Shown: positions 41,447-63,983 of the stretch, piece by piece | Position numbering within the stretch: position 1 is the first letter of the stretch | Layout of the letters: the number at the start of each line of letters is the position of its first letter | Assembly (NCBI GenBank): GCA_963662405.2 | Contig: CAXXKT010000001.1 | Span: 1,120,001 to 1,184,000 of the forward strand | Length of the DNA: 64,000 bases | Direction of reading: 5' to 3' | Origin: Syntrophales bacterium | GTDB taxonomy: Bacteria; Desulfobacterota; Syntrophia; Syntrophales; UBA2210 | Made by a program: the position numbers and the translations under genes | Notes under the pieces: generated by a model | What the model was told of the DNA's origin: nothing | Databases searched by the model: none | What the model saw: only the letters and a program-made list of their open reading frames with translations

Positions 41447-43210
41447 ATGTCTCAGCGTGGAGAAATCGCAAAAGGATTTTCATCACATTCGTCAATCCCC
41501 TTTCAGGCGCTCCTCGACTCCGCTTATTTTGGAATTATCGCAGTTGATTCAGAAGGATACCTCGTATATATCAATGAAGTGGCCATATCATTGTTGGAAT
41601 TTCATGAGGATATTCAGGCCCGTCCCATTCACTATTCCGAGATTAATTATGATCGCTGGCTCGACTTTAAAAGGGTTATCGAGACGCGAGAACCCCAGAC
41701 AACAGTACCTGTCGTAGCGGGTACGTATTCGCTTCTGGCCAACAGGACCCCCATTATATGGAAAGGGAAGCTGGTAGGGGTCATGAGCGTGTTTCACGAC
41801 AGGGAAGAATACGAAAAGATATCACAATACCTGTCCCGATATAAAGCGATAGTCCGAGAGGTTGAGGCAATCATAAGCTCTTCATATGATGGGATATATG
41901 TGACCGATGGTGAGGCTAATACGATACGGGTAAACAGGGCGTACGAAGACATCACCGGCATCAAGGCCCAGGAGGTTCTGGGGCGCAATATGCGGGACCT
42001 TGTAGATGAGGGGTATTTCAGCGAGAGCGTTACACTGAAAGTCTTGGAGGAGGGAACGACGGTAACCCTCTCGCAGGAGTTGAAGACAGGGAAACATGTG
42101 CTGGTAACCGGCAATCCTTTTTTTGATGATGAAGGCGCGGTCAAGATGGTTGTGACCAATGTCCGGGATATGACCGATCTGGATAGGTTAAATCAACGGC
42201 TTGAGGAATCCCTGGAAATGACCAGGGTCTATAGGGATAAACTCCAGGAACTGCAGCTGTCGTCATACAAAGACAGTGAAATCATACGGGCATCCAAGGC
42301 GATGAGCTCCGTGTATGACCTGGTGGAGCGTGTTTGCAGAACGGATGCCACCATACTTTTCGAAGGAGAGACGGGTGTGGGGAAGGACCGGATCGCCGAA
42401 GAGATACATGCCAAGTCGAACCGTGCCGAAAAGGGAATTTTTGTAAAGATCAATTGCGGGGCAATCCCCGAGACGCTTCTGGAGAGCGAGCTGTTTGGAT
42501 ACGAAAAGGGGGCATTCACGGGAGCCAGCAGAGAGGGGAAACCCGGACTGTTCGAAGTGGCAGACAAAGGGACCCTTTTTCTAGATGAAGTAGAATCAAT
42601 GCCGGTTTCTCTCCAAGGAAAGTTGCTCAGAGTACTCCAGGATTTTGAAATAACACGAGTGGGGGGAACTGTGCCGAGAAAGGTGGATGTGCGATTGATA
42701 TGCGCTTCCAATCAAGACTTGGAGGAACTGGTGCAACAAAAGAAATTTCGTTCGGATCTCTATTATCGCCTGCATGTCATCCCTGTCTATATCCCCCCCC
42801 TGCGCGAGAGGACCGAAGATATCCCTTACCTGATAAGTCTTTTTCTTAATCGTTTCAATGAGAAATATGCCAAAAAGAAGGTCTTCAGCCGTGGGGCTAT
42901 CAATGCATTGATCAAATACACATGGCCTGGCAATGTGAGAGAAATGGTCAACCTGATAGAACGACTTGTCGTCATTACCGCCGGCAATTGTATTGATGTC
43001 AACGATCTCCCAACCGAGATTCATCGGATGCCCTTATATGACACCTCACACCACGAAGAAACACTCAAAGAACATTTGCACCGTATAGAGGTGTCCTTTA
43101 TCCGTAACGCAATCGATAAATATGGCAATGCCAGGAGGGCGGCGCCGCATCTTGGGGTAGATCCTTCGACCCTGACTCGAAAACTCAAAAAGCAAGATGA
43201 TGCGACATAG
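41447..43210 (+). CDS. PAS-domain sigma54 enhancer-binding protein (RocR/TyrR-like architecture)
   Basis: Two PAS domains; GETGVGK, ESELFGYEKGAFTGA, WPGNVRE and HTH LGVDPSTLTRK. Confidence 0.92.
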   Translation: MSQRGEIAKGFSSHSSIPFQALLDSAYFGIIAVDSEGYLVYINEVAISLLEFHEDIQARPIHYSEINYDRWLDFKRVIETREPQTTVPVVAGTYSLLANRTPIIWKGKLVGVMSVFHDREEYEKISQYLSRYKAIVREVEAIISSSYDGIYVTDGEANTIRVNRAYEDITGIKAQEVLGRNMRDLVDEGYFSESVTLKVLEEGTTVTLSQELKTGKHVLVTGNPFFDDEGAVKMVVTNVRDMTDLDRLNQRLEESLEMTRVYRDKLQELQLSSYKDSEIIRASKAMSSVYDLVERVCRTDATILFEGETGVGKDRIAEEIHAKSNRAEKGIFVKINCGAIPETLLESELFGYEKGAFTGASREGKPGLFEVADKGTLFLDEVESMPVSLQGKLLRVLQDFEITRVGGTVPRKVDVRLICASNQDLEELVQQKKFRSDLYYRLHVIPVYIPPLRERTEDIPYLISLFLNRFNEKYAKKKVFSRGAINALIKYTWPGNVREMVNLIERLVVITAGNCIDVNDLPTEIHRMPLYDTSHHEETLKEHLHRIEVSFIRNAIDKYGNARRAAPHLGVDPSTLTRKLKKQDDAT

Positions 43211-43501
43211 CATCATCTTGCTGTCTATTTCTTTATCCGTTTATTCCTAGAAATTCAATCTATTAAGCTAGCATCAATTGACGCGCAATCCCAAACAGTG
43301 CATTTTGGCATTATTTTGATGAAGGCACGAATCAGTTCTGATTTTAGATGGATATGATTTCTTGCTGCTGAAATAATGCACTCAGGAATTACTTCTGCAG
43401 CAAAGGAGATGCTTGAACGAGCCGTCTCTGATTCAATATTCAGCGTGCAAATACTCGGAATTAAAGAACGTTAAAACGGGGAAAAACTCATATCGGGATG
43501 A

Positions 43502-43517
43502 TGGTACGAAAATTGTA
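43502..43517 (+). promoter_or_regulatory. Candidate sigma54 promoter of the abfD operon
   Basis: TGGTACG-AAAA-TTGTA: good -24 element, -12 GT instead of GC. Alternative GG-N10-GC matches at 43573-43588 and 43722-43737. Confidence 0.4.
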
Positions 43518-43988
43518 GACTCCGTAGAGCCGTATGCATCTGAACCCTTCGATGCAGTGCTGTTGAGAGATACGGCATGAGCAAAGCGGAAGGGGCAAAA
43601 AGAGAGTTTGGTACTGTTGATGCGCGTAAACCGAAGCAGGGCAATGTGATGAATTTGAAACTCACGACCTGGTTGGTTGGAGAGAAAATGGAGCACATGG
43701 CCGACATCCATTCTGTGGGGCGGGCAACAGATATGCTAGATCGGCAGATGGATGTGCCTTTTTGGTGTGCGCGCAGCACGAGATGTGCTCCCCTTCGACA
43801 CTCTGGACTTCTCATGCTGATAGCCCGATCTGCTTTATGCACAGAAAGCTTTGGATGTAAAAGGACAAACGGTATGGATAACGGAAAGTTGCCGGTAGGC
43901 GGTCGCGATATATCTGAAAGAGGAATATGCCGTTTGGGTAATGTATGAAACAATTTACAATGGGCAAAAGAGATGCAGGAGGATTAAG

Positions 43989-45443
43989 ATGTCAATGATG
44001 AACGCGAAGCAGTACGAGGAGAGTTTGAGGAAGTTGCATTTTAATGTGTGGATGTTCGGGAAGAAGGTGGAGAACGTGGTGGACAATCCGATCATCCGTC
44101 CGTCGATGAACGCGGTGGCGGCGACGTATGAATTTGCCCACTATCCGGAGTACGAGGACCTGATGACGGCGACCTCTCATATTACGGGGAAGAAGGTCAA
44201 CCGGTTCACGCATATCCACCAGAGCACGGAAGACCTGGTGAAGAAGTCCAAGATGGGGCGGCTGTTGGGCTCCCTGACGGGCTGCTGTTTTCAGCGGTGC
44301 GTGGGGATGGACGCGATGAACGCCCTGTCCATGACCACCTACGATATCGATCAGAAGCACGGGACCGAGTACAACAAGCGTTTCCTGAAATACATGGAAT
44401 ACGTCCAGGAGGGCGACCTGACCTGCGACGGCGCCATGACCGATCCGAAGGGAGACCGGGGCAAGGCCCCGCACCAGCAGGACGATCCGGACATGTTCAT
44501 GCACGTGGTGGAAGAGAAGAAAGACGGGATCGTGGTGCGGGGTGCGAAGTGCCACCAGACCGGTGCGGTCAACTCCCACGAGATCATCATCATGCCGACC
44601 ATCAGCATGCGCGAGGAGGACAAGGACTATGCCATCTCCTTTGCGCTCCCCGCCGATGCCGAGGGGATCACCTACATCATGGGGCGTCAGTCGTGCGACA
44701 CGCGGAAACTGGAAGCGGGTACCATGGACCGGGGGAACCAGCTCTACGGCGGCCATGAGGCCCTGGTCGTCTTCGATGATGTCTTCGTCCCCTGGGAGCG
44801 GGTCTTCATGTACAAGGAATGGGAATTCGCCGGCCAGCTGGTGGAGCAGTTCGCCTCCTACCATCGTCAGAGCTACGCCTGCAAGGCGGGTGTGGGCGAT
44901 GTCCTCATCGGCGCGACCCAGTGTATCGCCGAGTACAACGGTGCCCAGAAGGCCTCCCACGTGAAGGACAAGATCATCGAGATGAACCATCTCAATGAGA
45001 CCCTCTTCTGTGGATCGATTGCCTGTGCGTCCGAAGGGCACAAGGAGCCGAGCGGGACGTACTACGTCAACACCCTCCTGGCGAACGTGTGCAAGCAGAA
45101 CGTGACGCGGTTTCCCTACGAGATCGCGCGTCTGGCGCAGGACATTGCGGGCGGTCTGATGGTGACCCTTCCCTCGGAAGAAGACTTCCGATCCCCCGAG
45201 ATCGGGAAATGGATTGAGAAATACTACCGGGCCAGCACGGCCGTCTCCACGGAAGACCGGATGCGGATGCTGCGTCTGATCGAGAACATCACGCTGGGGA
45301 CGGCTGCGGTGGGGTATCTGACCGAGTCGATGCACGGTGCGGGTTCGCCGCAGGCGCAGCGGATCATGATCTCACGGCAGGTGAACCTGGAGGAGAAGAA
45401 GAAGGTTGCCAAGAAACTCAGCGGTGTCACGAAGGATGAGTGA
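43989..45443 (+). CDS. abfD: 4-hydroxybutyryl-CoA dehydratase / vinylacetyl-CoA delta-isomerase
   Basis: CFQRCVGMDA (CX3C), GAMTDPKGDRG, GRQSCDTRK, YHRQSYACK and ESMHGAGSPQAQR; AGGAGG RBS; neighbours are 4-HB pathway genes. Confidence 0.92.
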   Translation: MSMMNAKQYEESLRKLHFNVWMFGKKVENVVDNPIIRPSMNAVAATYEFAHYPEYEDLMTATSHITGKKVNRFTHIHQSTEDLVKKSKMGRLLGSLTGCCFQRCVGMDAMNALSMTTYDIDQKHGTEYNKRFLKYMEYVQEGDLTCDGAMTDPKGDRGKAPHQQDDPDMFMHVVEEKKDGIVVRGAKCHQTGAVNSHEIIIMPTISMREEDKDYAISFALPADAEGITYIMGRQSCDTRKLEAGTMDRGNQLYGGHEALVVFDDVFVPWERVFMYKEWEFAGQLVEQFASYHRQSYACKAGVGDVLIGATQCIAEYNGAQKASHVKDKIIEMNHLNETLFCGSIACASEGHKEPSGTYYVNTLLANVCKQNVTRFPYEIARLAQDIAGGLMVTLPSEEDFRSPEIGKWIEKYYRASTAVSTEDRMRMLRLIENITLGTAAVGYLTESMHGAGSPQAQRIMISRQVNLEEKKKVAKKLSGVTKDE

Positions 45444-45735
45444 GAAGGTCCGGATCGGACTGAAATACTGTGGGGGGTGTAATCCCCGCTACGATCGTGT
45501 ACAGGCGGTAGGATACCTGCGGGAACGGTTGCAGGGCACCGTGGAACTTGTTTCGTACGAGGACCCGGATATTGCGGGTGTGCTGGTGGTTGCCGGCTGT
45601 CCTACCGCCTGCGTCGATCCGGAGCCGTTCAAAGAACGCTCCGTGTGGGTTGTTACCCGCCGACAGGGCATCGATGATTTTGTGAAAACCATCATACCGA
45701 GGGGAAAAAAGAATGCACTGGAAAGAATTATATAA
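45436..45735 (+). CDS. Small Cys-motif protein (KYCGGCNP...GCPTAC)
   Basis: 99 aa; overlaps the abfD stop and the CoA-transferase start (translational coupling). Confidence 0.75.
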   Translation: MSEKVRIGLKYCGGCNPRYDRVQAVGYLRERLQGTVELVSYEDPDIAGVLVVAGCPTACVDPEPFKERSVWVVTRRQGIDDFVKTIIPRGKKNALERII

Positions 45736-47008
45736 CCAAAAGATTACAACTGGTCAGGAGGCCGTGAAGCAGATCAAGTCCGGAGACCGGGTGGTCGTGG
45801 GGCACGCAACCGGTTCCCCGGAAGTACTGTTGACGGCCATGCTGGCCAACAGGGATGCGTATGAGGATGTGGAGATTGTCCACATGGTTGCGATGGGGCC
45901 TTCCGCATATTGCCTCCCGGAGAATTCTCCCCACTTTATCCACAATTCTCTGTTTGCCGGAGCGACAACGAGAAATGCCCTCCATGAGGGGAGGGCCATC
46001 TATACCGCATCACATTTCAGCCAGATCCCCCGGCTGTTTACCGAACGGATCGTTCCGGTCGATGTGACCCTGTGCATGCTCTCCACACCCGATGAGCATG
46101 GCTACTGTTCGTTCGGCATCTCAGTGGACTATACGAAACCCGCAGCGGAGAGTTCCAGGATCGTTATAGCGGAAGTAACGCCTCACATGCCGAGGACGCT
46201 GGGTGATGCCTTTATCCACATCTCGGACATTGATTATATCGTTGAGTGTGATTCCAAGCCCATCGAGCTCAGGCCCCCGCAGATCGGACCGATCGATGAG
46301 GCGATCGGGGGATACTGCGCAGAGTTGATACAGGACGGGGATTGCCTGCAGCTGGGTATCGGTGCGGTCCCGGATTCGATCCTGAATTTTCTGACCGAGA
46401 AGAAGGATCTGGGGATTCATACGGAGATGTTTTCCGATGGCGTTGTGGATCTGGTCAATGCGGGTGTTGTCACCTGCGCACGCAAGAATTTTCATCCCCA
46501 TAGGATGGTTGCCACCTTCTTCATGGGGACGGACAAGCTGTACAACTTTGTTCACAACAATCCCAAGGTGGAGATGTTCCCGGTTGATTACACCAACAAC
46601 CCTGCGATCATCTCCAGAAACGACAATGTGGTGTCCATCAATTCCTCGTTGCAGGTGGACCTGACCGGTCAGGCGGCATCGGAATCGATCGGCCCCAAGC
46701 AGTTCAGCGGCACGGGCGGGCAGGCCGATTTTGTCAGGGGCGCGGCCTGGTCGAAGGGAGGACGGTCCATAATCGCGTTCCACTCAACGGCGGCCAAGGG
46801 GAAGCTTTCACGGATCGTTTCCCATCTTGATGAAGGGACCACGGTAACAACGACCCGTACGGATATCCATTACATCGTGACGGAATACGGCATTGCCGAT
46901 ATGAGGGGCAAATCTGTTCACCAGAGAGCCGAGTCCCTGATCAATATCGCACATCCTGATTTTCGCGCGGACCTGAAAAAGGAGTTTAATAGGAAAAATT
47001 CTGCTTAA
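45713..47008 (+). CDS. 4-hydroxybutyrate CoA-transferase (acetyl-CoA hydrolase/transferase family, Cat2/AbfT-like)
   Basis: LQLGIG..P, DLGIHTEMFSDG (catalytic Glu), SGTGGQ.DFVRGA and VTEYGIA; context. Confidence 0.88.
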   Translation: MHWKELYNQKITTGQEAVKQIKSGDRVVVGHATGSPEVLLTAMLANRDAYEDVEIVHMVAMGPSAYCLPENSPHFIHNSLFAGATTRNALHEGRAIYTASHFSQIPRLFTERIVPVDVTLCMLSTPDEHGYCSFGISVDYTKPAAESSRIVIAEVTPHMPRTLGDAFIHISDIDYIVECDSKPIELRPPQIGPIDEAIGGYCAELIQDGDCLQLGIGAVPDSILNFLTEKKDLGIHTEMFSDGVVDLVNAGVVTCARKNFHPHRMVATFFMGTDKLYNFVHNNPKVEMFPVDYTNNPAIISRNDNVVSINSSLQVDLTGQAASESIGPKQFSGTGGQADFVRGAAWSKGGRSIIAFHSTAAKGKLSRIVSHLDEGTTVTTTRTDIHYIVTEYGIADMRGKSVHQRAESLINIAHPDFRADLKKEFNRKNSA

Positions 47009-47149
47009 AAAGATCGGAGTGGCTTTTCGGCAGAGGGAGGTTCGGATCGAATGGGCGATTTGAACCGTTCCCCCGGATGTGAATATATCGGACGCCTTTA
47101 CCATCAGGAGATGGAGGAGTCACAGAAAACAGATGGGAGGTTAAGGAAA

Positions 47150-48301
47150 ATGGCACAGATATTTACGATAACGCCTAAGATCATCATGGGGTTGGGAGCA
47201 ATCGATGCAATTGGAGATGAGATCAAGCGACGGGGTGTAAAGAAGGTCCTAATCGTAACCGACAAAGGGGTTATTGCAGCAGGGTTGACGCAGGCCATTG
47301 AGGCGTCACTCACGGCGGCCGGAGTGGCATTTGGCACCTTTGACGGTGTGGAGCCCGATCCACGATATGAGATTGTCGCGGATTGTCTTGCAAAGGTGAA
47401 AAATGAGGAGGCTGAGCTCCTGATCGGACTCGGCGGAGGGAGTCCCATCGATATCGCCAAGACGACTGCGGTTATGGCGACAAACGACGGTCCCATCGGA
47501 GCGTACTTCGGGATTGATCTGATTCCCAAGCCGGGTCTCCCAACGATTATGGTCCCCACCACGGCGGGGACGGGGAGTGAGGTCACACCGATCGCGATTT
47601 TGTCCGACGAAGGCGAAAAGCTGAAAAAGGGTGTCGTGAGTCCTTATCTCTATCCTGCTGCGGGAATACTTGATCCGGTGCTGACCGCGGGGTTGCCTCC
47701 CCATGTAACGGCAGCCACGGGGATGGACGCGCTGATCCACGCAGTGGAGGCCTACACGTCCATTAATGCCACAGGGATGACGGATATGTACTGCATCCGT
47801 GCCATTGAACTTATTTACAACAACCTGCGGACGGCCTACGCCAAAGGCGACAATATGGAGGCGCGGACGGCGATGATGGAAGGGGCACTCCTGGCGGGTA
47901 TCGGTTTTGCGAATGCAGGTGTCACGGCGGTCCATGCCTTTGCCTATCCGATCGGGGCCGAGTTCCACATCCCCCACGGAGTTGCGAATACCCTCATGCT
48001 GCCCCATGTGATTCGTTATAACGTGCTGGGGAACCTGCCCAAGTTTGCGGGGCTGGCAAAGCCCTTCGGGATTCCGACGGAAGGCCTGGATGATCTTCAG
48101 ATTGTTGACCGTGTGATCGGGGCGATCGACCGGCTGGCCGACGATCTGCGTGTCCCGCGCCATCTTGCTGATTTCGGAGTAAAGGAAGAAGACGTACCGA
48201 TGCTGGCCGAGGGTGTGATGAAGGTGACCCGTCTCCTGGCCAACAATCCGAGAACGCTGATTCTCGAGGACGCTAAGGCGATATATACGGCGGCGCTTTA
48301 A
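47150..48301 (+). CDS. Iron-containing alcohol dehydrogenase (probable 4-hydroxybutyrate dehydrogenase / succinic semialdehyde reductase)
   Basis: GGGSPID, PTTAGTGSEVT, DALIHAVE and H...HIPHG iron ligands. Substrate inferred from context. Confidence 0.85.
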   Translation: MAQIFTITPKIIMGLGAIDAIGDEIKRRGVKKVLIVTDKGVIAAGLTQAIEASLTAAGVAFGTFDGVEPDPRYEIVADCLAKVKNEEAELLIGLGGGSPIDIAKTTAVMATNDGPIGAYFGIDLIPKPGLPTIMVPTTAGTGSEVTPIAILSDEGEKLKKGVVSPYLYPAAGILDPVLTAGLPPHVTAATGMDALIHAVEAYTSINATGMTDMYCIRAIELIYNNLRTAYAKGDNMEARTAMMEGALLAGIGFANAGVTAVHAFAYPIGAEFHIPHGVANTLMLPHVIRYNVLGNLPKFAGLAKPFGIPTEGLDDLQIVDRVIGAIDRLADDLRVPRHLADFGVKEEDVPMLAEGVMKVTRLLANNPRTLILEDAKAIYTAAL

Positions 48302-48314: not shown

Positions 48315-48346
48315 GGGTGAGGATCTCATCCCAGAGATCCTCACCC
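48315..48346 (+). other. Intercistronic 13-bp perfect stem-loop
   Basis: GGGTGAGGATCTC-ATCCCA-GAGATCCTCACCC; no U-tract. Confidence 0.7.
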
Positions 48347-48388
48347 GGGCCGCTATCAGGAAATATTGATTTTCAGGAGGAAGAACAG

Positions 48389-49690
48389 ATGGATAATAAG
48401 TCTCTGGTTGACAAACGATCGGCGACCCTCGCGAAATCTTTTGCGGGCGGCAAACCGGCCTTTGCGGCATATGGACAGGGTGCCATTTTGACTGACGTAG
48501 ACGGTCGTGAATATATCGATTTTGCGGGTGGAATCGGTGTCATGAATATCGGGCATTCCCATCCGAAAGTGGTCGCCGCCATTCAGGAACAGGCCGCGAA
48601 ACTGACACACTCCTGCTTCATGGTGGTGCCCTATGAACCGGCCGTCAAGCTGGCGGAGCGTCTCTGTGCCCTGACACCCGGTTCTTTCCCGAAGAAGGCC
48701 TTTTTCGTGAATGCCGGCGCCGAAGCGGTGGAGAACGCCGTGAAGATATCGCGGTATTATACCAAGAGGCCGGGGATCGTTGTCTTTGATAACTGCTTCC
48801 ACGGGCGGACCCTGCTCACCATGACGATGACGAGCAAGGCAAAGCCCTATAAGTTTGGATTCGGCCCCTTCGCCTCAGAGATTTACCATGCGCCCTATGC
48901 ATACTGTTACCGGTGTCCCTTCGGTCTGGAGTACCCGAAGTGTAATACCTACTGTGCCGATTTCCTGGCACAGGAGTTTTTTATCCGATGTCCTGCGGAA
49001 ACAACGGCGGCGGTGATAGCAGAACCCGTACAGGGTGAAGGTGGTTTTATCACACCTCCCCCTGAATATTTCCCGAAGGTTGCGCAGATCTGTAAAGATA
49101 ACGGGATACTCTTTGTCTCCGATGAAATTCAGGCGGGGATGGCACGGACGGGTGGAAAACTCTTTGCTATCGAGCACTGGGGTGTTGAGCCGGACCTGGT
49201 GACCATTGCGAAGAGTCTCGCCGCCGGTATGCCTCTCAGCGCCGTCGTCGGGAGAGAAGAGATCATGGATTCCATCCACCCCGGGGGAATCGGCGGGACC
49301 TACGGCGGCAACCCCGTGGCCTGCGCGGCAGGGAATGCCGTTCTGGACGCCTACGAGGAAGACAATATCCTCGATAAGAGTGAGGCGTTGGGTCAGAAAC
49401 TGTGGGCGGCATTCACGGAGATGCAGAAGAAGTACGAAATTATCGGCGATGTCCGTGGCAAGGGGCCGATGATCGCCCTTGAGTTGGTCGTGGACCGTGT
49501 GACGAAAGAGACCAATGCTGAGGCAGCGGGCAAGATCGCCGCCTACGCCTTTGAGAAGGGACTGATCCTCCTGAGCTGCGGACCCTATGGTAACTGCATC
49601 CGGTGCCTGATGCCGCTGGTGATTACCGATGAGCAACTCGATCGTGGGCTGGCGATTATTGACGAGGCCTTTGCCTCTCTCGAAAAGTAA
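48389..49690 (+). CDS. gabT: 4-aminobutyrate:2-oxoglutarate aminotransferase (class III PLP), copy 1
   Basis: YIDFAGGIGV.N.GHSHP, GAEAVENAVK, FHGRT, EPVQGEGGF, DEIQ.G..RTG, AKSLA.G.PLS and GGTYGGNP. Confidence 0.9.
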   Translation: MDNKSLVDKRSATLAKSFAGGKPAFAAYGQGAILTDVDGREYIDFAGGIGVMNIGHSHPKVVAAIQEQAAKLTHSCFMVVPYEPAVKLAERLCALTPGSFPKKAFFVNAGAEAVENAVKISRYYTKRPGIVVFDNCFHGRTLLTMTMTSKAKPYKFGFGPFASEIYHAPYAYCYRCPFGLEYPKCNTYCADFLAQEFFIRCPAETTAAVIAEPVQGEGGFITPPPEYFPKVAQICKDNGILFVSDEIQAGMARTGGKLFAIEHWGVEPDLVTIAKSLAAGMPLSAVVGREEIMDSIHPGGIGGTYGGNPVACAAGNAVLDAYEEDNILDKSEALGQKLWAAFTEMQKKYEIIGDVRGKGPMIALELVVDRVTKETNAEAAGKIAAYAFEKGLILLSCGPYGNCIRCLMPLVITDEQLDRGLAIIDEAFASLEK

Positions 49691-51255: not shown

Positions 51256-51288
51256 GTGTATGACGTACGCATAACATTTATTAAAGAT

Positions 51289-51329
51289 CGGGATTCGGAA
51301 GAGCCCTTGCATAGCTCTTCCGAATCCCG
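51289..51329 (+). other. Intercistronic 16-bp perfect stem-loop after the binding-protein gene
   Basis: CGGGATTCGGAAGAGC-9 nt-GCTCTTCCGAATCCCG. Confidence 0.75.
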
Positions 51330-56832: not shown

Positions 56833-57816
56833 ATGTTGAAGATATTAAAGGGTGGTATTGAATCGATGGTTGAGGATTGGCCCGGCAGGTTGGGATATCT
56901 GAGCAAGGGTATGGCCGCTTCCGGTGCTCTGGACAATATGGCTCTTCAGTTCGGAAATCTGCTGGTGGGAAACCCCATTGACGAGGCAGGCGTGGAGATC
57001 GCCGGTGGCTATTTCGAGGCAGAATTTCTGGATGATGGCGTGATCAGCGTGTGCGGAACCGACATGAAACCCACCATCAACGGCACGTCGATCCCCATGT
57101 GGGAGGCTGTCGCGGTGAAGAAGGGCGATACGTTGAACCTCGCCGTATTCGGAGAGTTCGGATTCCGCGCATATCTTGCCATTGCCGGCGGGATCGATGT
57201 CCCCAAATATCTGGGGAGCAAATCGACCTGTATGTTTGGAAGCTACGGCGGTTTTGAAGGACGGGCGCTGCTCCCCGGCGATGTCCTGAAGATCGGCGCT
57301 CCCTCAAAGAATCTGGGCGATCTCGCGGGACGGAAGCTGAAGGACGATGTGGTCCCGAAATACTCGCGAGTCTGGGAACTGCGGACCATACCGGGACCCA
57401 ACACCTGCCCCGATTACGTGACGAAGGAGGGAATGGATTATCTGTATGAGACCGAGCACAAGATACAGCATACCTCCAACCGTTCCGCCTATCGTATCGA
57501 ATCGGTCCCGGAGTATTTCTGGGCGCGAAAGGATGGGGGCGTCGGTGGAAGCCATCCGTCCAACATCGTTGATCACGGTTACGCGATTCGCGGTACCCTG
57601 AACATCTGTGGTGATACCCCCATTATTCTGATCGGGGATGGGCCCACGCTGGGCGGGTATGTCAACGTGATGCACGTAATAAATGCGGATCTGTGGAAAA
57701 TCGGCCAGGGAACCCCTGCCCGTGACAGTTTCAAGTTCAGCTATATCACCCGAGAAGGGGCGATAGAGGAACGGAAGAAACAGAAGGCCCTGTATACTGA
57801 AGCGTCAATTGCTTAA
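56833..57816 (+). CDS. Carboxyltransferase A/B-domain subunit (urea-carboxylase-type, PxpC/KipA superfamily)
   Basis: DWPGRLGY...SGALD, RAYLAIAGGIDVP.YLGS.ST, WARKDGG..G.HPSNIVDHGY and DGPTLGGY. Confidence 0.87.
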   Translation: MLKILKGGIESMVEDWPGRLGYLSKGMAASGALDNMALQFGNLLVGNPIDEAGVEIAGGYFEAEFLDDGVISVCGTDMKPTINGTSIPMWEAVAVKKGDTLNLAVFGEFGFRAYLAIAGGIDVPKYLGSKSTCMFGSYGGFEGRALLPGDVLKIGAPSKNLGDLAGRKLKDDVVPKYSRVWELRTIPGPNTCPDYVTKEGMDYLYETEHKIQHTSNRSAYRIESVPEYFWARKDGGVGGSHPSNIVDHGYAIRGTLNICGDTPIILIGDGPTLGGYVNVMHVINADLWKIGQGTPARDSFKFSYITREGAIEERKKQKALYTEASIA

Positions 57817-57851: not shown

Positions 57852-58073
57852 ATGGATTTCGCTGTGGAAGCGACGATGCCGGGATTGGTGGCACGAGTTG
57901 TTGTGAACGCGGGTGATGCGGTTGCGGAAGGTCAGGAAGTGGCTGTCATCAATTGTATGAAAACCGAGATCAGTGTTGCTGCCGCGAAGGCAGGCTCTGT
58001 CAAGACCATCAAGGTCAAGGAGTGGGATGAGGTACAGGTCGGCGATCCGATGGTGATCCTGGATGTAGCCTGA
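57852..58073 (+). CDS. Stand-alone biotin carboxyl carrier protein
   Basis: 73 aa biotinyl/lipoyl domain, A.MPG.V....V..GD.V..GQ....NCMKTE..V.A..AG.V; AGGAGG RBS. Confidence 0.88.
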   Translation: MDFAVEATMPGLVARVVVNAGDAVAEGQEVAVINCMKTEISVAAAKAGSVKTIKVKEWDEVQVGDPMVILDVA

Positions 58074-58189: not shown

Positions 58190-58795
58190 ATGCAAGAGGT
58201 AAAAGAGGTAAATGTGAATGTTCAAGTGGCGGATGCCGGGTCGGCCGGATGGATAGCCTATACGATCGCTACCTGGATCGCGTGGGCGTCCCTGTGCGGA
58301 TTTGTCAACAGCAAGGCCCTGCTCTTCATGGCCTGCATCTCTCTGGCCTGCACCATTCCCTATATCGGTGCCGCGATTACGCAGCTGAAGCTCGGGAATG
58401 TGTCCGGTGGAGTCACGTGGCTCTATTTCGGTGCATTCTTTGCCTTTTGTTCGGCCCTGACCTATGGTGTCAGCTATTTTGCGCCCATCTATGGATGGGA
58501 ACTGGATGCCAGGATCCTGGGATATGAGTGGGCTGTCCTGGGGTTGACACTGATCTGCTCGACACCCATATTCCTGAAGCTGGCACCGGCGGCAGCCGGC
58601 ATATCTGTTATCGGAGCCGATATAGGTATCGTTGGACTGACCCTGATATACTGGGGGATGAACGGTCCGGCCATGTGTCAGTTGAGTGGGTGGGGCTTCT
58701 TTGTGGCAGGTCTTTTCGGCCTTTTTATGACCATCGGGGGTATTCTTGAGGGTGCCGATATGAAGTTCCCCATGGGAAAACCTTTAATGAAGTAG
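58190..58795 (+). CDS. Divergent GPR1/FUN34/YaaH (SatP/AceTr)-like 6-TM channel
   Basis: ADAGSAG aligns with the NPAPLG position, LKLGN..GG....YFG with the GNTFG position, and it ends in FPMGKP; 6 TM. Confidence 0.6.
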   Translation: MQEVKEVNVNVQVADAGSAGWIAYTIATWIAWASLCGFVNSKALLFMACISLACTIPYIGAAITQLKLGNVSGGVTWLYFGAFFAFCSALTYGVSYFAPIYGWELDARILGYEWAVLGLTLICSTPIFLKLAPAAAGISVIGADIGIVGLTLIYWGMNGPAMCQLSGWGFFVAGLFGLFMTIGGILEGADMKFPMGKPLMK

Positions 58796-58934: not shown

Positions 58935-60290
58935 ATGAAGAAGATTTTAATTGCCAACAGAGGGGAGATTGTTCTTAGGGTAATCAAGGCGGCCAGGGAA
59001 TTGGGGATACAGACCGTTGCTGTCTATTCCGATGTCGACAAGGATGCCGTCCACACACGCGCGGCGGATGAAGCGGTGAATATCGGGACTCCCCCACCTC
59101 CCTTCAGCTATCTGAGTATCGAAAATATTATCAAGGCGGTCAACGAGTCAGGGGCGGACGCAGTGCATCCGGGATATGGTTTTCTTTCTGAAAACGCTGA
59201 TTTCGCTCAGGCTGTGGTCAATAACGGTACCACGTGGATAGGGCCGTCGCCGGAGGTGCTTCGTAATATCGAATCGAAGTCGTATTGCAGAAGCCTGGGA
59301 AAGAAAGTGAACGTTCCGATTACCCCGGGGACTGTCGGGAGTGTGAAGAGTGCGGACGAGATCCGTGCGTTGTTCAAAGAACTGGGTGCTCCGCTCTTGG
59401 TGAAACTCGATAAGGGTGGGGGAGGAAAGGGGATACAGCCCATATACCGCGAAGAGGATATCGAGGCGATATTTGAATCCTCCCAAAGTATCGGGAAGGC
59501 AGCCTTTGGTTCCGGAGATTGTTACATCGAAAAACGGATACTCAATCCACGTCACATCGAGGTTCAGTTCCTCGGTGACATGTATGGAAATTATATCACC
59601 CTCGGCGAGCGAGAATGCTCGGTCCAGAGAAGGTACCAGAAGGTTGTCGAGGAGGCTCCCTCATCGATCGTGACCCCGGAGGAGCGGAAGAATCTGGCGC
59701 AATGGGCAATCAGCATAGCGCGTGAGATGGGGTATATCAACGCCGGAACCGTCGAGTTTCTGCGGGCGGACGATGGCACGTTCTACTTTATGGAAGTCAA
59801 TGCGCGGATACAGGTCGAGCACCCTGTTACCGAGATGGTGACAGGTATCGATCTCGTCAAAAGCCAGTTGCGGATTGCCTCGAATGAAAAGCTGGATATC
59901 GTCCAGGACGATATCCAGATCAATGGCCATGCCATTGAGGCCCGTATCTATGCGGAAGATCCGGAAACCTTTATGCCTTCGCCGGGAACGATCAGCATGG
60001 TAGTGCTCCCTGAAGAAAAGAATGGGATACGGATCGACCATGCCCTCGAAGAGGGTATGAGGGTGTCGCCCTTTTATGATCCCATGCTGGCAAAGGCGAT
60101 CGCATGGGGTGAAAACCGTGACGCGGCCGTTGAACGGCTGGAGGGTCTGCTGGGTGAACTGGTGATCGGGGGCGTGAAGACCACCATACCCCTCGGGCAG
60201 CTCATATTGAAGAGTGAACCCTTCAAGCAAGGAACCTTTACCACGGATTCTATGAATGATATCTTGCCGGGAGCGAAGGAGTCAAAGTAA
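58935..60290 (+). CDS. Biotin carboxylase subunit
   Basis: ILIANRGEI, HPGYGFLSENA, GGGGKG, RHIEVQ, ERECSVQRR.QK, FMEVNARIQVEHPVTE, EARIYAEDP and YDPMLAK. Confidence 0.93.
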   Translation: MKKILIANRGEIVLRVIKAARELGIQTVAVYSDVDKDAVHTRAADEAVNIGTPPPPFSYLSIENIIKAVNESGADAVHPGYGFLSENADFAQAVVNNGTTWIGPSPEVLRNIESKSYCRSLGKKVNVPITPGTVGSVKSADEIRALFKELGAPLLVKLDKGGGGKGIQPIYREEDIEAIFESSQSIGKAAFGSGDCYIEKRILNPRHIEVQFLGDMYGNYITLGERECSVQRRYQKVVEEAPSSIVTPEERKNLAQWAISIAREMGYINAGTVEFLRADDGTFYFMEVNARIQVEHPVTEMVTGIDLVKSQLRIASNEKLDIVQDDIQINGHAIEARIYAEDPETFMPSPGTISMVVLPEEKNGIRIDHALEEGMRVSPFYDPMLAKAIAWGENRDAAVERLEGLLGELVIGGVKTTIPLGQLILKSEPFKQGTFTTDSMNDILPGAKESK

Positions 60291-60521
60291 AGATACATGA
60301 CGGACACCGGTCGTGGAAAAGGGCCCGGATTCATTTCCCCTGCGGAAACGGTCTGTGTGCGGCTGGTGCCCATACGGCGGATATCACGGAAGTGATTGGC
60401 CCCGGGCGATGTCTCTCCTTTCCTGAAGAGACATCGTCCGCAGTTGTGATGTGAGGATGTAATGATCGGGCATGAGTCACAGGATGGCACATATAGGGAT
60501 GTTTCAACGGGTTTCATGCCG

Positions 60522-60555
60522 GGCGGTTTTTCATTTTTTTGAAAAACCGCCTTTC
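60522..60555 (+). terminator. Stem-loop terminator candidate downstream of the biotin carboxylase gene
   Basis: GGCGGTTTTTCA-T6-TGAAAAACCGCC followed by TTT. Confidence 0.55.
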
Positions 60556-60600: not shown

Positions 60601-62352
60601 ATGAAGAGAGAGCCCCCCATGAAGAGACCGATGAAACTCGAACGTATCTTTAACGATTGTTCCGTCGGTTTCGTTGTTGTCGACGGTGCAGAGGAGATCC
60701 AGTTTGTGAACGACCGGGCCTGTCACATGATTGGCAGGGCGAGAGCGGATCTATTGGGCGCCGCCATCGGGGACGTCAACCCACTCCTCCGGGATATTCT
60801 CAGGTCGGATACCCCCTGTCAAAAAGGACATCATGTTATCAACAAAGATAAAAATCTTGCCGTGCACATCGCCCCCATTACCACGGACGGAAGAGCTGCC
60901 GGTTTTTTTATCTCCCTCCTGGATATACGGGAACTGAAGAGGATCACCGATGAGTTGCAATCATATCAGAACAGGATCAGCCAGTTTGATGCCATTTTCA
61001 ATACGACGTCCGACGGTATCTGGCTCTGCGACGGAGAGGGAACAATCCTGGCAATCAATAAAACATCCGAGGGGTTTAACGGTATTCGCGCTGAGGATTT
61101 TATAGGCAAAAACATTGCCTTTGCAGCGGAAAAAGGGATCTTTGACAGATCGGGAACCATGGAGGCAATCAAGGCCAGACGCGAAGTTACGATCGTCCAG
61201 AATGTAACCAAACGGAAGCATTCCCTCATGGTGACCGGGACCCCTGTCTTTGATGAGACCGGAGAGATCGCTATGGTGGTTGTAACTGAACGGGACATGA
61301 CTCAGCTGAATGTAATCCGTGATCAGCTTGCACAGACCCTCATGGTGACGGAACGGTACAAGGACGAACTGGCGAAACTCAGTATGCAGGATTTTGCGGA
61401 GGAGGGGATCGTCGCCGAGAGCGAGGAAATGCGTAAGACCCTTCGTGTCGCGAGGAGACTTGCCTACCTGAATGTATCCAATATACTTATACTCGGTGAA
61501 TCGGGTACGGGGAAGGGTGTCCTCGCCAAACTCATCCACAAAAAAAGTGTACGACAGGAAAAACCCTTCGTGCAGATCAACTGTGCGGCACTCCCGGAGA
61601 GCCTGCTCGAGGCGGAGCTGTTCGGGTATGAAAAAGGGGCCTTCACCGGTGCCCGGGAGCAGGGAAAGATCGGACTCTTTGAACTCGCGCAGGGAGGGAC
61701 CCTCTTTCTTGATGAGATCGGCGATCTTCCCCTGGCACTCCAGGCCAAACTGCTGAAGTATCTCGATGATAATGAGATCATCAGACTAGGGGGCATCAAA
61801 CCCAAGAAGATCGATTGTACCATCATTGCCGCGACAAACCGGGATCTCGAGACGCTGACGGAATCGAGACAATTTCGCGAAGATCTCTATTTCCGCCTCA
61901 ACTCGTTCGTCATCAGAATTCCTCCTCTGCGGGAACGCACCGGCGATATATTTGAACTGGTGCATTTTTTCCTCAACCGGTATAATCAGACGTATCAAGT
62001 TGACAAACGTATTACCCACCGGGCGTTATCACTTTTAAACGAATATTCCTTTCCGGGAAATGTGCGAGAACTCCAGAATCTCTTCAAGCAGGCCGTCGTG
62101 ATGAGCGAGGATGATGAGGTGGATGATTTCGTGATCCACGCCTGTGGTCGAAGGGCCAAGACCCGGAATCAGAAAGAGAGTTTTCGGAAAATCGACATGC
62201 CTTTGGCAGACACAATGCGCCTGCAGGAACGTGCCGTGCTGGAGGATGCCGTGAAACACTGCCGTTCAACCCGAGAGATGGCCCGTTTTCTGGGTATTGG
62301 TCAGACATCTGTCATTCGCAAATTGAAGAAATATAACCTTTCACTCAGGTGA
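60601..62352 (+). CDS. PAS-domain sigma54 enhancer-binding protein (paralog of 41447-43210)
   Basis: Two PAS domains; GESGTGK, EAELFGYEKGAFTGA, FPGNVREL and TyrR-like HTH STREMARFLGIGQTSVIRKLKKY. Confidence 0.92.
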   Translation: MKREPPMKRPMKLERIFNDCSVGFVVVDGAEEIQFVNDRACHMIGRARADLLGAAIGDVNPLLRDILRSDTPCQKGHHVINKDKNLAVHIAPITTDGRAAGFFISLLDIRELKRITDELQSYQNRISQFDAIFNTTSDGIWLCDGEGTILAINKTSEGFNGIRAEDFIGKNIAFAAEKGIFDRSGTMEAIKARREVTIVQNVTKRKHSLMVTGTPVFDETGEIAMVVVTERDMTQLNVIRDQLAQTLMVTERYKDELAKLSMQDFAEEGIVAESEEMRKTLRVARRLAYLNVSNILILGESGTGKGVLAKLIHKKSVRQEKPFVQINCAALPESLLEAELFGYEKGAFTGAREQGKIGLFELAQGGTLFLDEIGDLPLALQAKLLKYLDDNEIIRLGGIKPKKIDCTIIAATNRDLETLTESRQFREDLYFRLNSFVIRIPPLRERTGDIFELVHFFLNRYNQTYQVDKRITHRALSLLNEYSFPGNVRELQNLFKQAVVMSEDDEVDDFVIHACGRRAKTRNQKESFRKIDMPLADTMRLQERAVLEDAVKHCRSTREMARFLGIGQTSVIRKLKKYNLSLR

Positions 62353-62565
62353 ACCACATACGGTGCATCAATTTATTTAATCGTTTGGAATTATTCGATT
62401 TAACATCCTTCAGCCGAACCGCTCACTGGCCTGACGCTTATCTGCATAATATCATTACCACATTTAAAATTCTTTGATCCGGTATCGGTTCGCCTGTGCC
62501 GACAGCCCCCGCAGGGAGTGCCAGCATAATCTGCAATTACAATGGGTTGTGTTTTGTTGTTGCCG

Positions 62566-62581
62566 TGGTATGGCTCTTGCT
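62566..62581 (+). promoter_or_regulatory. Sigma54 (-24/-12) promoter of gabT copy 2
   Basis: TGGTATG-GCTC-TTGCT (GG-N10-GC), 100 nt upstream of ATG 62682. Confidence 0.75.
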
Positions 62582-62681
62582 GAAGTACGATGTGTCGGAG
62601 AACGGTGGTGAGAGTGTTTGGTCTCTCAGGTGCTTTTGCTATCAGATAGGATGATCAAGCGGACTACAGGAGGATTTTTTA

Positions 62682-63983
62682 ATGGGCAATCAGTCATTAG
62701 TGGAAAGACGGGCGGGTGCACTTGCGGCCTCGTTTAATAACGGGAAGCCGGCCTTTGCGGCATCGGGTTTTGGTGCAGCCTTTACAGATGTAGAAGGCCG
62801 TGAGTACATCGATTTCGCCGGCGGGATTGCGGTGATGAATGTGGGCCACTCGCATCCGCGGGTAGTGGCGGCGATCAAGGAACAGGCGGAGCGGTTTACG
62901 CACACCTGTTTCATGGTGGTGCCGTATGAAGGAGCGGTCCGGTTGGGTGAGCGACTCTGTGCGTTGGCGCCGGGGGATTTCCCCAAAAAGGCCTTTTTTG
63001 CCAATTCGGGGGCAGAGGCCGTCGAAAATGCGGTTAAGGTAGCGCGGTATTACACGAAAAGGCAGGGGATCGTCGCATTTGATAATGCCTTTCATGGGCG
63101 AACGCTGCTGACCATGGCAATGACGAGCAAGGCAAAACCGTACAAGTTTGGATTCGGCCCCTTTGCGCCTGAGGTATACCATATGCCCTATGCGTACTGT
63201 TACCGGTGTCCCTTTGGGCTCGACTATCCGAAGTGTGGGATATACTGTGCGGAGTATCTGAAGGATGAGATGTTTATACGGTGTCCTGCCGAAACCACGG
63301 CTGCTGTGATTGCGGAGCCTGTTCAGGGTGAAGGCGGGTTCATTACCCCTCCGCCCGAGTATTTTCCGAAGATCGCCAAGATCTGTCGGGATAATGGGAT
63401 TCTGTTCGTTTCAGACGAGATCCAGGCCGGTATGTGCCGTACGGGCGAGAAGATCTTCGCCATAGAACATTGGGACGTTGAACCTGATCTGATGACCGTT
63501 GCGAAAAGTCTTGGCGCCGGCTTACCGATCAGTGCCCTTGTGGGTCGTGCGGAGATCATGGATTCGATTCATGCGGGCGGTATCGGTGGCACGTACGGAG
63601 GTAATCCGGTGGCCTGTGCGGCGGCGAATGCGGTCTTGGACATTATCGATGAAGAGGGGCTTCCTGCGCGAAGTGAGGCCTTGGGTAAAAAATTATGGTC
63701 TGCCTTTGAGGATCTGGAGCGTGAGTACGAGGTGATCGGCGATGTGCGCGGCAAGGGTCCGATGATTGCGCTGGAGTTGGTAAAGGATCGCGAGACGAAG
63801 GAACCGGACAGCGCTTCAGCGGCGGCAGTCGCGGCCTATGCCTTTGAGAAAGGTTTGATCCTGTTGACCTGCGGTCCCTACGGGAATGTGATCCGCTGTT
63901 TGATGCCGCTGGTGATCACCGATGAGCAACTCGACAAAGGTCTTTCGATTATAGATGAAGCATTCGCGTCATTGAAGAGGTAG
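62682..63983 (+). CDS. gabT: 4-aminobutyrate (omega-amino acid) aminotransferase, copy 2
   Basis: Same class III PLP motifs; 433 aa, collinear with and highly similar to 48389-49690. Confidence 0.9.
   Translation: MGNQSLVERRAGALAASFNNGKPAFAASGFGAAFTDVEGREYIDFAGGIAVMNVGHSHPRVVAAIKEQAERFTHTCFMVVPYEGAVRLGERLCALAPGDFPKKAFFANSGAEAVENAVKVARYYTKRQGIVAFDNAFHGRTLLTMAMTSKAKPYKFGFGPFAPEVYHMPYAYCYRCPFGLDYPKCGIYCAEYLKDEMFIRCPAETTAAVIAEPVQGEGGFITPPPEYFPKIAKICRDNGILFVSDEIQAGMCRTGEKIFAIEHWDVEPDLMTVAKSLGAGLPISALVGRAEIMDSIHAGGIGGTYGGNPVACAAANAVLDIIDEEGLPARSEALGKKLWSAFEDLEREYEVIGDVRGKGPMIALELVKDRETKEPDSASAAAVAAYAFEKGLILLTCGPYGNVIRCLMPLVITDEQLDKGLSIIDEAFASLKR

Follow-up and report, generated by a model that had tools for sequence, protein, structure and literature searches.

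This report concerns a stretch of 64,000 nucleotides from the genome of a Syntrophales bacterium (assembly GCA_963662405.2, contig CAXXKT010000001.1), called the window here, and a gene module near its right end that encodes a split biotin enzyme together with a hydrolase of the PxpA/LamB family. The module lies in a block inserted into an operon for the fermentation of 4-aminobutyrate (GABA), and genes for GABA transaminase (gabT), aldehyde:ferredoxin oxidoreductase (AOR) and 4-hydroxybutyryl-CoA dehydratase (abfD) recur beside it in other anaerobes. On balance, the sequences and their neighbours point to a cassette for the biotin-dependent opening of a lactam, probably 2-pyrrolidone, to GABA. 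The genes on which the original prediction of such a pathway was built are all present at or near their predicted positions, as shown by Pfam and NCBIfam scans for all but the SatP-like gene, and all sizeable genes between 41447 and 63983 are on the plus strand.

The inserted block and the operon around it

The region was at first seen as one locus bracketed by two paralogous activators. Both activators are present, but comparison with related genomes indicates that the locus is two units, an ancestral operon and a 9.4-kb insertion with its own activator and gabT. The ancestral operon (unit 1) contains the following genes.

41447..43210, + strand: act1, PAS + sigma-54 AAA+ activator of the ancestral GABA operon (Pfam Sigma54_activat 225.9 bits, with PAS and helix-turn-helix domains)
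43941..45443, + strand: AbfD, 4-hydroxybutyryl-CoA dehydratase / vinylacetyl-CoA isomerase (704.7 bits to PDB 1u8v; Pfam HpaB_N, HpaB)
45713..47008, + strand: 4-hydroxybutyrate (4-HB) CoA-transferase, AbfT-like (518 bits to 3eh7, 460 bits to 3gk7)
47051..48301, + strand: Fe-dependent alcohol dehydrogenase (Fe-ADH), putative 4-HB dehydrogenase (Fe-ADH Pfam domains)
48317..49690, + strand: GabT1, 4-aminobutyrate:2-oxoglutarate transaminase (TIGR00700 557.6 bits, cut-off 506.65)
49954..54683, + strand: ATP-binding cassette (ABC) importer made of a LivK-type binding protein with LivH, LivM, LivG and LivF (Pfam)
49954 (or 49999)-51255, + strand: Peripla_BP_6 binding protein of this importer (Pfam)
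51351-54683, + strand: LivH, LivM, LivG and LivF, two permeases and two ATPases (Pfam)

The order act1, abfD, CoA-transferase, Fe-ADH, gabT, livK, livH, livM, livG, livF is kept in four family-level relatives (G153, G058, G193 and G102), with identities of 75-91% for the enzymes and transport proteins, and none of the four carries the lam genes (CT_C_D, LamB) of the module. In two of the four, G153 and G102, a glutamate dehydrogenase gene (gdh) comes right after livF. Nucleotide similarity to G153 ends at the livF stop codon (54683) and restarts about 12 bp before a gdh gene, at ~64116, just beyond the window end; this gdh is 88% identical to the gdh after livF in G153. The genes from pxpA through gabT2 are therefore an insertion of about 9.4 kb that takes the place of a 297-bp spacer, and gdh, by the same comparison, is part of the ancestral operon and not of the insertion. 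The block and its genes are as follows.

54684 to ~64115 (just beyond the window end), + strand: inserted block between livF and gdh (comparison with G153)
54914..55660, + strand: hydrolase of the PxpA/LamB family, candidate for cleavage of the activated ring amide (LamB_YcsF, PF03746, 324 bits; NF003814 327.7 bits, cut-off 226)
55822..56808, + strand: carboxyltransferase (CT) subunit C/D (CT_C_D), urea-carboxylase type, 328 aa (TIGR02712 positions 788-1097, 228.6 bits)
56833..57816, + strand: CT subunit A/B (CT_A_B), urea-carboxylase type (TIGR02712 positions 449-763, 289.2 bits; 189 bits to 3va7)
57852..58073, + strand: minimal biotin carboxyl carrier protein (BCCP), 73 aa (NF006079 62.2 bits, cut-off 95; biotinyl-lysine motif NCMKTE)
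58190..58795, + strand: SatP-fold six-helix membrane protein, 201 aa, candidate substrate channel (predicted fold)
58935..60290, + strand: dedicated biotin carboxylase (CPSase_L_D2, Biotin_carb_N, Biotin_carb_C; NF006367 562.9 bits, cut-off 597)
60601..62352, + strand: act2, second PAS + sigma-54 activator (Pfam; 35% identical to act1)
62682..63983, + strand: GabT2, second 4-aminobutyrate transaminase (TIGR00700 574.3 bits, cut-off 506.65; 78% identical to GabT1)

The borders of the insertion carry no direct repeats of 10 bp or more, no integrase or transposase was found among the genes identified inside it by the Pfam and NCBIfam scans, and no clear step in base composition marks it. Of 300 other genomes sampled from the class, none has a CT_C_D homologue (E 1e-60 or better), and the window's own genome is the sole match among the 204 high-quality genomes of the class sample. 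Among five close relatives, neither PF02682 (CT_C_D) nor PF03746 (LamB_YcsF) has a match. The module is therefore not a housekeeping function, and the same GABA operon with and without it in related genomes provides a natural experiment.

Subunits of the biotin enzyme

Both CT subunits align end to end with the whole CT domain of urea carboxylase, and their best matches among solved structures are the urea carboxylase / urea amidolyase of Kluyveromyces lactis (3va7, 5i8i). The urea carboxylase model TIGR02712 (EC 6.3.4.6) gives 477.6 bits to the biotin carboxylase, 289.2 to CT_A_B, 228.6 to CT_C_D and 44.3 to the BCCP, a sum of about 1040 against a cut-off of 1303.85. The models for the subunits of the biotin-free 5-oxoprolinase score far lower, with 43 bits for CT_C_D on the PxpB model TIGR00370 (cut-off 145.55) and 166.6 bits for CT_A_B on the PxpC model NF045499 (cut-off 500), so that the assignment of the carboxyltransferase to the urea-carboxylase type is supported. 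The NCMK core of the BCCP is kept in all 61 homologues from related loci, as NCMK(T/N/other)E. A second biotin carboxylase paralogue, 43% identical, is encoded elsewhere in the genome, and the copy in the module is therefore a dedicated one.

According to the accessible part of the published study, Lys1605 of the K. lactis urea amidolyase is the essential general base of the CT reaction (PMC5770610). This residue aligns with K198 of CT_C_D, and the position is Lys in 118 of the best 120 CT_C_D family members and in 119 of 120 fused urea-carboxylase-like proteins, and Arg in the three biotin-free PxpB-type chains aligned (PH0987, KipI, YbgJ). The loop around Asp1584 is different. Of the 120 fused enzymes listed, 119 have GLGDVYLGAP here or a sequence that differs from it at one residue, but the loop is replaced in the split CT_C_D family, where the window protein has GGFWPGGGFFW. 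The large majority of the 118 members with the motif located show (Y/F)NSG(G/C)GFWPGG(G/A)F(F/L)WP, a Gly/aromatic-rich loop that resembles the GFxPGFxxLG of PxpB-type proteins. The best 120 public relatives of CT_C_D are 66-100% identical and all 326-330 aa long. Fused relatives among the matches listed are only urea-carboxylase-like proteins, all at most 39% identical, and no sequence identifiable as fungal LamA is found among the 120 fused forms listed; those with a named source are bacterial, apart from one that comes from a eukaryote transcriptome. Judged from these alignments, the module is a split enzyme with the machinery of urea carboxylase and a predicted altered substrate pocket, paired with a LamB hydrolase.

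This likeness could also mean that the module is a split urea or guanidine carboxylase that scavenges nitrogen and lies near GABA genes by chance. Both CT subunits have their best family match in TIGR02712, which the biotin carboxylase matches strongly too, some public sources label family members 'urea carboxylase', and the livH gene product scores higher as UrtB (162 bits) than as LivH (122 bits). Nevertheless, this explanation is very improbable. The best match to the allophanate hydrolase model TIGR02713 in the whole genome has 220 bits against a cut-off of 511 and is far from the locus, DUF1989 (PF09347) has no match in the genome, and neither of these partner genes is among the 45 most frequent neighbour clusters of the module. 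Furthermore, the module has another sequence in place of the Asp loop that 119 of the 120 fused urea/guanidine-carboxylase-like proteins share, the Liv genes are part of the GABA operon, and the partners that do recur are PxpA/LamB (75 of the 80 loci described below) and GabT (32 of 80).

The hydrolase subunit raises another question. A biotin-dependent 5-oxoprolinase would convert 5-oxoproline to glutamate, which the neighbouring glutamate dehydrogenase would then turn into 2-oxoglutarate. The score of PxpA on NF003814, the position of gdh right after the insertion, and the fact that the module holds the sole LamB-family gene and the sole CT_C_D gene of the genome are all in keeping with such an enzyme. 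However, PxpA equivalog models are missed by the protein (e.g., NF003813 with 292.3 bits vs 392), the PxpB and PxpC models are missed widely by the CT subunits, and gdh is older than the insertion in this operon. The missing PF02682 and PF03746 in the five relatives searched and the missing CT_C_D in the 300 class genomes speak against a housekeeping repair of 5-oxoproline. Finally, glutamate would need a decarboxylase to reach the AbfD route, and none was found: in agreement with what had been noted for the locus, no protein in the genome reaches the glutamate decarboxylase equivalog, the two Pyridoxal_deC proteins having 65 bits against a cut-off of 380. We therefore give a 5-oxoprolinase little probability.

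The module in other anaerobes

Public genomes were scanned for the CT_C_D subunit, one genome per species, and 80 loci were obtained, in which neighbours were counted within the available flanks (up to 10 kb). Counting was done by tblastn with at least 50% query coverage and at least 35% identity (at least 40% for GabT-like genes), as the greedy caller of open reading frames (ORFs) put some genes on the wrong strand in GC-rich loci. By their record names the loci come from Desulfobacterota-type bacteria, Bacillota and one member of the Thermoleophilia, and the cultured carriers include Clostridium ljungdahlii, C. ragsdalei, Pelotomaculum propionicicum, Anaerovorax odorimutans, Propionispira arboris and Desulfotruncus arcticus. 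The neighbours are the following.

PxpA: 75 of 80 loci; 54 of 54 loci with at least 5 kb on both sides
CT_A_B: 78 of 80 loci
BCCP: 61 of 80 loci
Biotin carboxylase: 54 of 80 loci
GabT-like: 32 of 80 loci; 27 of 54 loci with at least 5 kb on both sides
Sigma-54 activator: 32 of 80 loci
DUF1097 membrane protein: 26 of 80 loci
SatP-fold protein: 18 of 80 loci
AOR: 16 of 80 loci by tblastn; 20 by ORF clustering
Sugar-type (CUT2, Peripla_BP_4) ABC system: 13 of 80 loci
Old-yellow-enzyme: 10 of 80 loci
PucR regulator: 6 of 80 loci
Glutamate dehydrogenase: 5 of 80 loci
AbfD: 4 of 80 loci
HyuA / HyuB: 4 of 80 loci each
Biotin ligase: 4 of 80 loci

The GabT-like gene is on the strand of the module in 23 of its 32 loci, at a median distance of 2.5 kb, and the chance of such a gene in a random 21-kb stretch is about 2%, by arithmetic from the paralogue count of this genome. 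Of 31 neighbouring aminotransferase ORFs, 24 pass the NCBI GabT equivalog cut-off and four miss it by less than 4 bits; the remainder are one putrescine aminotransferase (L005) and two truncated sequences. abfD and the module occur together in four gene orders, counting that of the window, and the three orders found elsewhere all differ from it. L017 and L022 have gabT placed between pxpA and CT_C_D and, further downstream, AOR and abfD. L010 has an act1-like activator, a CoA-transferase, pxpA, CT, BCCP, the channel, biotin carboxylase, abfD, a CoA-transferase, Fe-ADH and gabT, and L041, from the Bacillota, has the module with DUF1097 followed by abfD and a CoA-transferase gene. An act2-like activator stands ahead of gabT and the module in several Syntrophobacteraceae loci. 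The proposed connection of the biotin module to GABA catabolism thus holds outside the window, with co-localised gabT or abfD seen in other genomes among the 80 loci. A 5-oxoprolinase could draw on the five loci with glutamate dehydrogenase, but it would leave the recurrent partnership with GabT unexplained.

The same neighbourhoods bear on the identity of the amide. Another amide, cyclic or acyclic, might undergo the same chemistry and yield an omega-amino acid, for example delta-valerolactam (giving 5-aminovalerate), N-substituted pyrrolidones, a pyrrolinone that is first reduced by the old-yellow-enzyme, or 4-aminobutyramide. Old-yellow-enzyme ene-reductases are directly beside the module in seven of their ten loci (L003, L004, L013, L016, L017, L019, L022), HyuA/HyuB-type ATP-dependent amidohydrolases adjoin it in four (L053, L066, L069, L079), the putrescine aminotransferase is a neighbour in L005, and the transport partner varies between the SatP-fold protein (18), DUF1097 (26) and the sugar-type ABC system (13), which could reflect different substrates. 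The ene-reductases and amidohydrolases among these neighbours hint that in some hosts the route also takes up further ring amides, among them unsaturated ones. Such a substrate is unlikely but keeps some weight for the family as a whole. In the window the route through AbfD and 4-HB CoA-transferase is specific for four carbons, and most of the neighbouring aminotransferases (24 of 31) pass as GabT. The nearly invariant loop of CT_C_D argues for one substrate class across the family.

A subgroup of Bacillota loci (L027, L029, L033, L036, L048, L049, L051, L062) has CT_C_D, CT_A_B, PxpA and usually DUF1097, with no biotin carboxylase or BCCP in the flanks. These loci also carry a 282-aa protein with faint similarity to response regulators (E ~0.004-0.009). 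The subgroup may borrow its biotin carboxylase and BCCP from elsewhere, or may work without biotin.

Transport of the substrate

The membrane protein in the block starts at 58190 by comparison with its homologues. It has no Pfam or NCBIfam match even at E 10, does not match the AceTr/SatP family profile PF01184, and shows no similarity by hhalign (probability 0.5%) to the canonical SatP protein of the window at 8653-9216. An AlphaFold model built from 17 homologues reached a predicted local distance difference test score (pLDDT) of 74.9, the other four models reaching 53-63. Searched with Foldseek, this model matched the SatP structures 5ys3, 5ys8 and 5zug with TM scores of 0.73-0.82 (probability 1.0), and the Helicobacter pylori urea channel with TM scores of only ~0.4-0.5. 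SatP-like motifs can be recognised by eye (A-D-A-G-x-A-G-W vs A-N-P-A-P-L-G-L, and K-L-G-N-x-x-G vs K-K-G-N-x-x-G). The earlier assignment as a SatP-like channel is supported at the level of the predicted fold but not by any family or profile match, and with moderate confidence the protein can be called a divergent SatP-fold channel. Across the 80 loci, its homologues and the DUF1097 protein never occur together, and the two families show no relation (hhalign probability 0.1%). The canonical SatP/YaaH acetate-succinate channel of the window (8653-9216, minus strand; PF01184, 124 bits) adjoins a major facilitator superfamily transporter (9359-10681, minus strand).

The Liv-type importer had been taken as the uptake system for the lactam, and this assignment has to be given up. 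The five liv genes follow gabT in four relatives without CT_C_D and LamB as well, at 78-88% identity, and because the same operon exists there without the lam genes, the importer is part of the GABA operon. The best match of its binding protein among solved structures is 8wch (195 bits), followed by the 3ip5-3ipc series (94 bits), which we take to be the Agrobacterium GABA-binding protein Atu2422. Most simply, the importer probably takes up GABA.

Transport partners also help to judge whether the module handles a substrate from outside or one made in the cell. In the latter case it would serve salvage or metabolite repair and recover intracellular 2-pyrrolidone, formed when a promiscuous CoA-transferase misactivates GABA to 4-aminobutyryl-CoA, which then cyclises. 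The part of a Pseudomonas putida preprint available to us describes the cyclisation of C4/C5 omega-amino acids after CoA activation, and lactamase knock-outs that are slightly growth-impaired on the matching amino acid (10.1101/2021.12.09.472016). The module stands beside a 4-HB CoA-transferase gene in the window and in L010, and the ATP cost would be tolerable for a minor flux. On the other hand, the CoA-transferase is a neighbour in only 2 of 80 loci as against 32 for GabT, four relatives run the same GABA operon without the module, and a membrane protein within the module (44 of 80 loci) or an ABC importer (13 of 80) points to a substrate from outside. As the main role of the module, repair is improbable.

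Proposed function and energetics

The favoured function, opening of a lactam to GABA, would proceed in five steps. A small ring amide, most likely 2-pyrrolidone, would enter through the SatP-fold channel. Biotin carboxylase would carboxylate the biotin on BCCP with ATP and bicarbonate, and the carboxyltransferase would then move the carboxyl group to the lactam nitrogen. PxpA/LamB would hydrolyse the activated ring, and the resulting N-carboxy-GABA would lose CO2 to give GABA, which joins the resident pathway. That pathway would consist of GABA import by the Liv-type ABC system, GabT, 4-HB dehydrogenase, 4-HB CoA-transferase and AbfD, leading to crotonyl-CoA, with glutamate dehydrogenase recycling 2-oxoglutarate. 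The net result would be the ATP-driven opening of an otherwise unfavourable lactam.

The fermentation of GABA in Clostridium aminobutyricum yields about 0.5 ATP per GABA by substrate-level phosphorylation. The present genome has no dsrA. With this low yield of the AbfD fermentation and no dsrA, a role as nitrogen source, co-substrate or salvage is more credible than a stand-alone 'lactam fermentation'. Coupling to ATP is expected because the opening of lactams is uphill; for caprolactam, hydrolysis is computed at +23 kJ/mol at neutral pH in the accessible part of the source (PMC8453981).

Several points weigh against lactam opening as the function. The substrate is read from the neighbouring genes only, one ATP per lactam would make the lactam a poor sole energy source for a fermenter, and the channel fold comes from one model of moderate confidence. 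PxpA/LamB passes an NCBI subfamily model that is named '5-oxoprolinase subunit PxpA'. The role of Asp1584, whose replacement suggests an altered pocket, in contacting urea is presumed. No sigma-54 site was found by the consensus scan upstream of pxpA, so that co-regulation is assumed from read-through; in the closest cassettes, L009 and L010, a sigma-54 site upstream of the module is present. GabT is not seen in 48 of the 80 loci, though many of these contigs are short, and biotin carboxylase and BCCP are not seen in 26 and 19, respectively. Even where both flanks span at least 5 kb (54 loci), nine loci are without biotin carboxylase, seven of them also without BCCP, most of these being from the Bacillota subgroup described above; for organisms without these genes at the locus biotin dependence is unproven.

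A wider proposal can be made tentatively, and we hold it with slightly less conviction than lactam opening in the window itself: that the module encodes a biotin enzyme of a new type, in which N-carboxylation of the lactam is coupled to hydrolysis by LamB. It would serve strict anaerobes as an ATP-driven opener of unsubstituted lactams, and would spread between phyla as a cassette that brings its own channel, regulator and gabT. If this is true, the biotin-dependent carboxylases would gain cyclic amides as a further substrate class, and the module would also explain the fungal pair LamA/LamB. Lactams of this kind, among them 2-pyrrolidone, valerolactam and caprolactam, are made in bulk and serve as monomers of polyamides, and they also form as dead-end by-products of omega-amino-acid metabolism. 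For lactam opening, the literature searched offers the ATP-dependent lactamases of the HyuA/HyuB type and a PxpABC paralogue known from genetics only, so a biotin-dependent route would be a third activation chemistry, with carboxylation instead of phosphorylation. It would also assign a function to a family from anaerobes of sediment, groundwater, digesters and the gut that is now annotated as 'allophanate hydrolase subunit', 'urea carboxylase' or '5-oxoprolinase'.

As for the claim that no anaerobic cluster of this form has been described, none was found in literature searches, whose coverage left out most subscription journals, but a biotin-free PxpABC paralogue of P. putida that uses butyrolactam is already in print. 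The searches found no paper joining 4-hydroxybutyryl-CoA dehydratase with pyrrolid*, and among the 15 listed of 27 papers on urea carboxylase and lactam no title points to a biotin-dependent lactamase.

Enzymes of the resident GABA operon

The HpaB-family protein at 43941-45443 aligns over its full length with AbfD of C. aminobutyricum (1u8v), and the Cys/Cys/His/Cys positions (CxxxC, HxxxxxxC), which we take to be the ligands of the [4Fe-4S] cluster from their numbering, are identical. By these signatures it is a true AbfD. Profiles place the CoA-transferase in the acetyl-CoA hydrolase/transferase family. The Fe-ADH is generic by sequence (240 bits vs a cut-off of 500 on the 4-HB dehydrogenase model NF058672), and its putative role as 4-HB dehydrogenase follows from its position in the operon. 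GabT1 is 91% identical to its orthologue in G153, and act1 has orthologues upstream of abfD in the four relatives, with 60-79% identity.

Beyond these four genomes, a full-length abfD at least 74% identical is present in 19 of 40 relatives, with partial matches in two more, and GabT orthologues are present in 10 of 40 relatives and in none of the seven same-genus genomes. Genome-wide, GabT is represented by the two window copies and one locus at 41-42% identity.

abfD exists in three copies in the genome, with 99.6-99.9% nucleotide identity: 43976-45657 of the window, C1:1194828-1196509 (L098) and C1:51752-53191 on the minus strand (L099). The identity stops at the gene end or within ~230 bp. 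L099 is accompanied by a second CoA-transferase (71% identical), a second Fe-ADH (66%) and an act1-like activator, and L098 lies downstream of another ABC system of the Liv type. The pattern suggests recent gene conversion or duplication of abfD among three substrate-specific loci. Directly 3' of abfD (45444-45712) lies a small Cys-rich ORF, 45406-45735 (…KYCGGCNPRYDR…AGCPTAC…). Its stretch was duplicated along with abfD in L098 and is ~81-85% nucleotide-conserved after abfD in two same-genus genomes and one same-family genome; it has no convincing family match (DUF7451, E 0.064).

Regulation

The regulatory elements of the two units are as follows.

43502..43517, + strand: sigma-54 (-24/-12) promoter of the abfD operon, TGGTACGAAAATTGTA (2 mismatches to consensus)
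60521..60552, + strand: terminator-like hairpin after the biotin carboxylase gene, 13-bp stem and T-rich tail (consensus match only)
62566..62581, + strand: sigma-54 promoter-like site upstream of gabT2, TGGTATGGCTCTTGCT (consensus match)

A scan of the whole window with the sigma-54 consensus gave 28 matches, and since 23.4 are expected by chance, the scan alone is uninformative. Only the site at 43502 gains support, through conservation: it aligns with TGGCAYG-N4-TTGT/C sites upstream of abfD in G153, G058, G193 and G102, and the TGCAT-type repeats upstream of it are conserved as well. From this promoter, pxpA through the biotin carboxylase gene would be read together with the upstream operon; a scan found no plus-strand terminator-like site in the spacer between livF and pxpA. 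act2 is 47-55% identical to activators that adjoin the module in Syntrophobacteraceae-type loci.

The leader between promoter and abfD (43518-43940) is ~420 nt long here and ~100 nt in the four relatives. Its extra stretch contains a second, weak sigma-54-like site (43609) and a spurious ORF, 43577-43948, which was rejected as a gene since it has no family match, lies in the leader and is missing from the shorter leaders of the relatives. A hairpin with a 17-bp stem (51289-51329) in the spacer between the binding protein gene and livH, placed by the scan on the minus strand, could set the ratio of binding protein to permease.

Other features of the window

A sigma-54 regulatory set at 22077-29393 (plus strand) includes a triple-PAS activator (747 aa), a histidine kinase, a response-regulator-type sigma-54 activator and a divergent Peripla_BP_6 protein, and a near-consensus sigma-54 site is found at 32739 (TGGCACACCCCTTGTT). 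A fatty-acid/polyketide-like run at 14091-21565 (minus strand) encodes an acyltransferase, a beta-ketoacyl synthase, a short-chain dehydrogenase, a FabA-like dehydratase, a beta-ketoacyl synthase III-like protein, an acyl-CoA dehydrogenase and a malonyl transferase.

Comparison with known systems

The module has a possible fungal counterpart in Aspergillus nidulans, one of its two nearest precedents. The fungal LamA is, we assume, a 'putative urea carboxylase' of ~1240 aa, so that in both systems a LamB/YcsF-family protein would work with a urea-carboxylase-like biotin enzyme. The genes are also co-controlled or co-located with those for GABA transaminase and GABA uptake: as far as the accessible part of the source shows, lamA and lamB are lactam catabolism genes under AmdR, the same regulator as for gatA and gabA (PMC8016842). 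In the window, by contrast, four polypeptides make up the biotin enzyme, fermentation through AbfD lies downstream, and the bacterium is a strict anaerobe.

Another relative is PxpABC, which supplies the second of the nearest precedents. In P. putida, deletion of the paralogue PP_2920-2 abolishes growth on butyrolactam as sole nitrogen source, according to the part of the preprint that was available (10.1101/2021.12.09.472016). PxpABC and the module share PxpA/LamB together with the CT_C_D and CT_A_B families, a GFxPG-type loop in the PxpB-type proteins and, as proposed here, the ATP-dependent opening of a five-membered lactam. However, PxpABC consists of three subunits without biotin parts, and the module adds biotin carboxylase and BCCP. 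Its CT_C_D is also longer, with 328 aa vs ~220 aa for the solved PxpB-type chains, and has Lys instead of Arg as base residue.

With urea carboxylase / urea amidolyase (3va7, 5i8i) and guanidine carboxylase, the module has in common the biotin carboxylase, CT A/B, CT C/D and BCCP domains and the general-base lysine. It differs from urea carboxylase in being split rather than fused, in an identity of at most 39% and in the replaced Asp-bearing loop, and its partner is PxpA/LamB instead of the allophanate hydrolase or DUF1989 proteins of these enzymes.

The resident operon resembles the GABA fermentation of C. aminobutyricum, in which GabT, 4-HB dehydrogenase, AbfT and AbfD act in this order: AbfD has 704.7 bits to 1u8v, the CoA-transferase has 460 bits to 3gk7, and the transaminase passes the GabT equivalog. 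In contrast to C. aminobutyricum, the genes here form one sigma-54-dependent operon with an ABC importer and gdh, and abfD is present in three near-identical copies in the genome.

Finally, caprolactamase, OplBA and the eukaryote-type 5-oxoprolinase (HyuA/HyuB) also open unsubstituted lactams at the expense of ATP, as is proposed for the module. In the accessible part of the source, lactam activation in the HyuA/HyuB family is thought to proceed via phosphorylation or carboxyphosphate, without biotin (PMC8453981). These proteins are unrelated to those of the module, yet their homologues adjoin it in 4 of the 80 loci.

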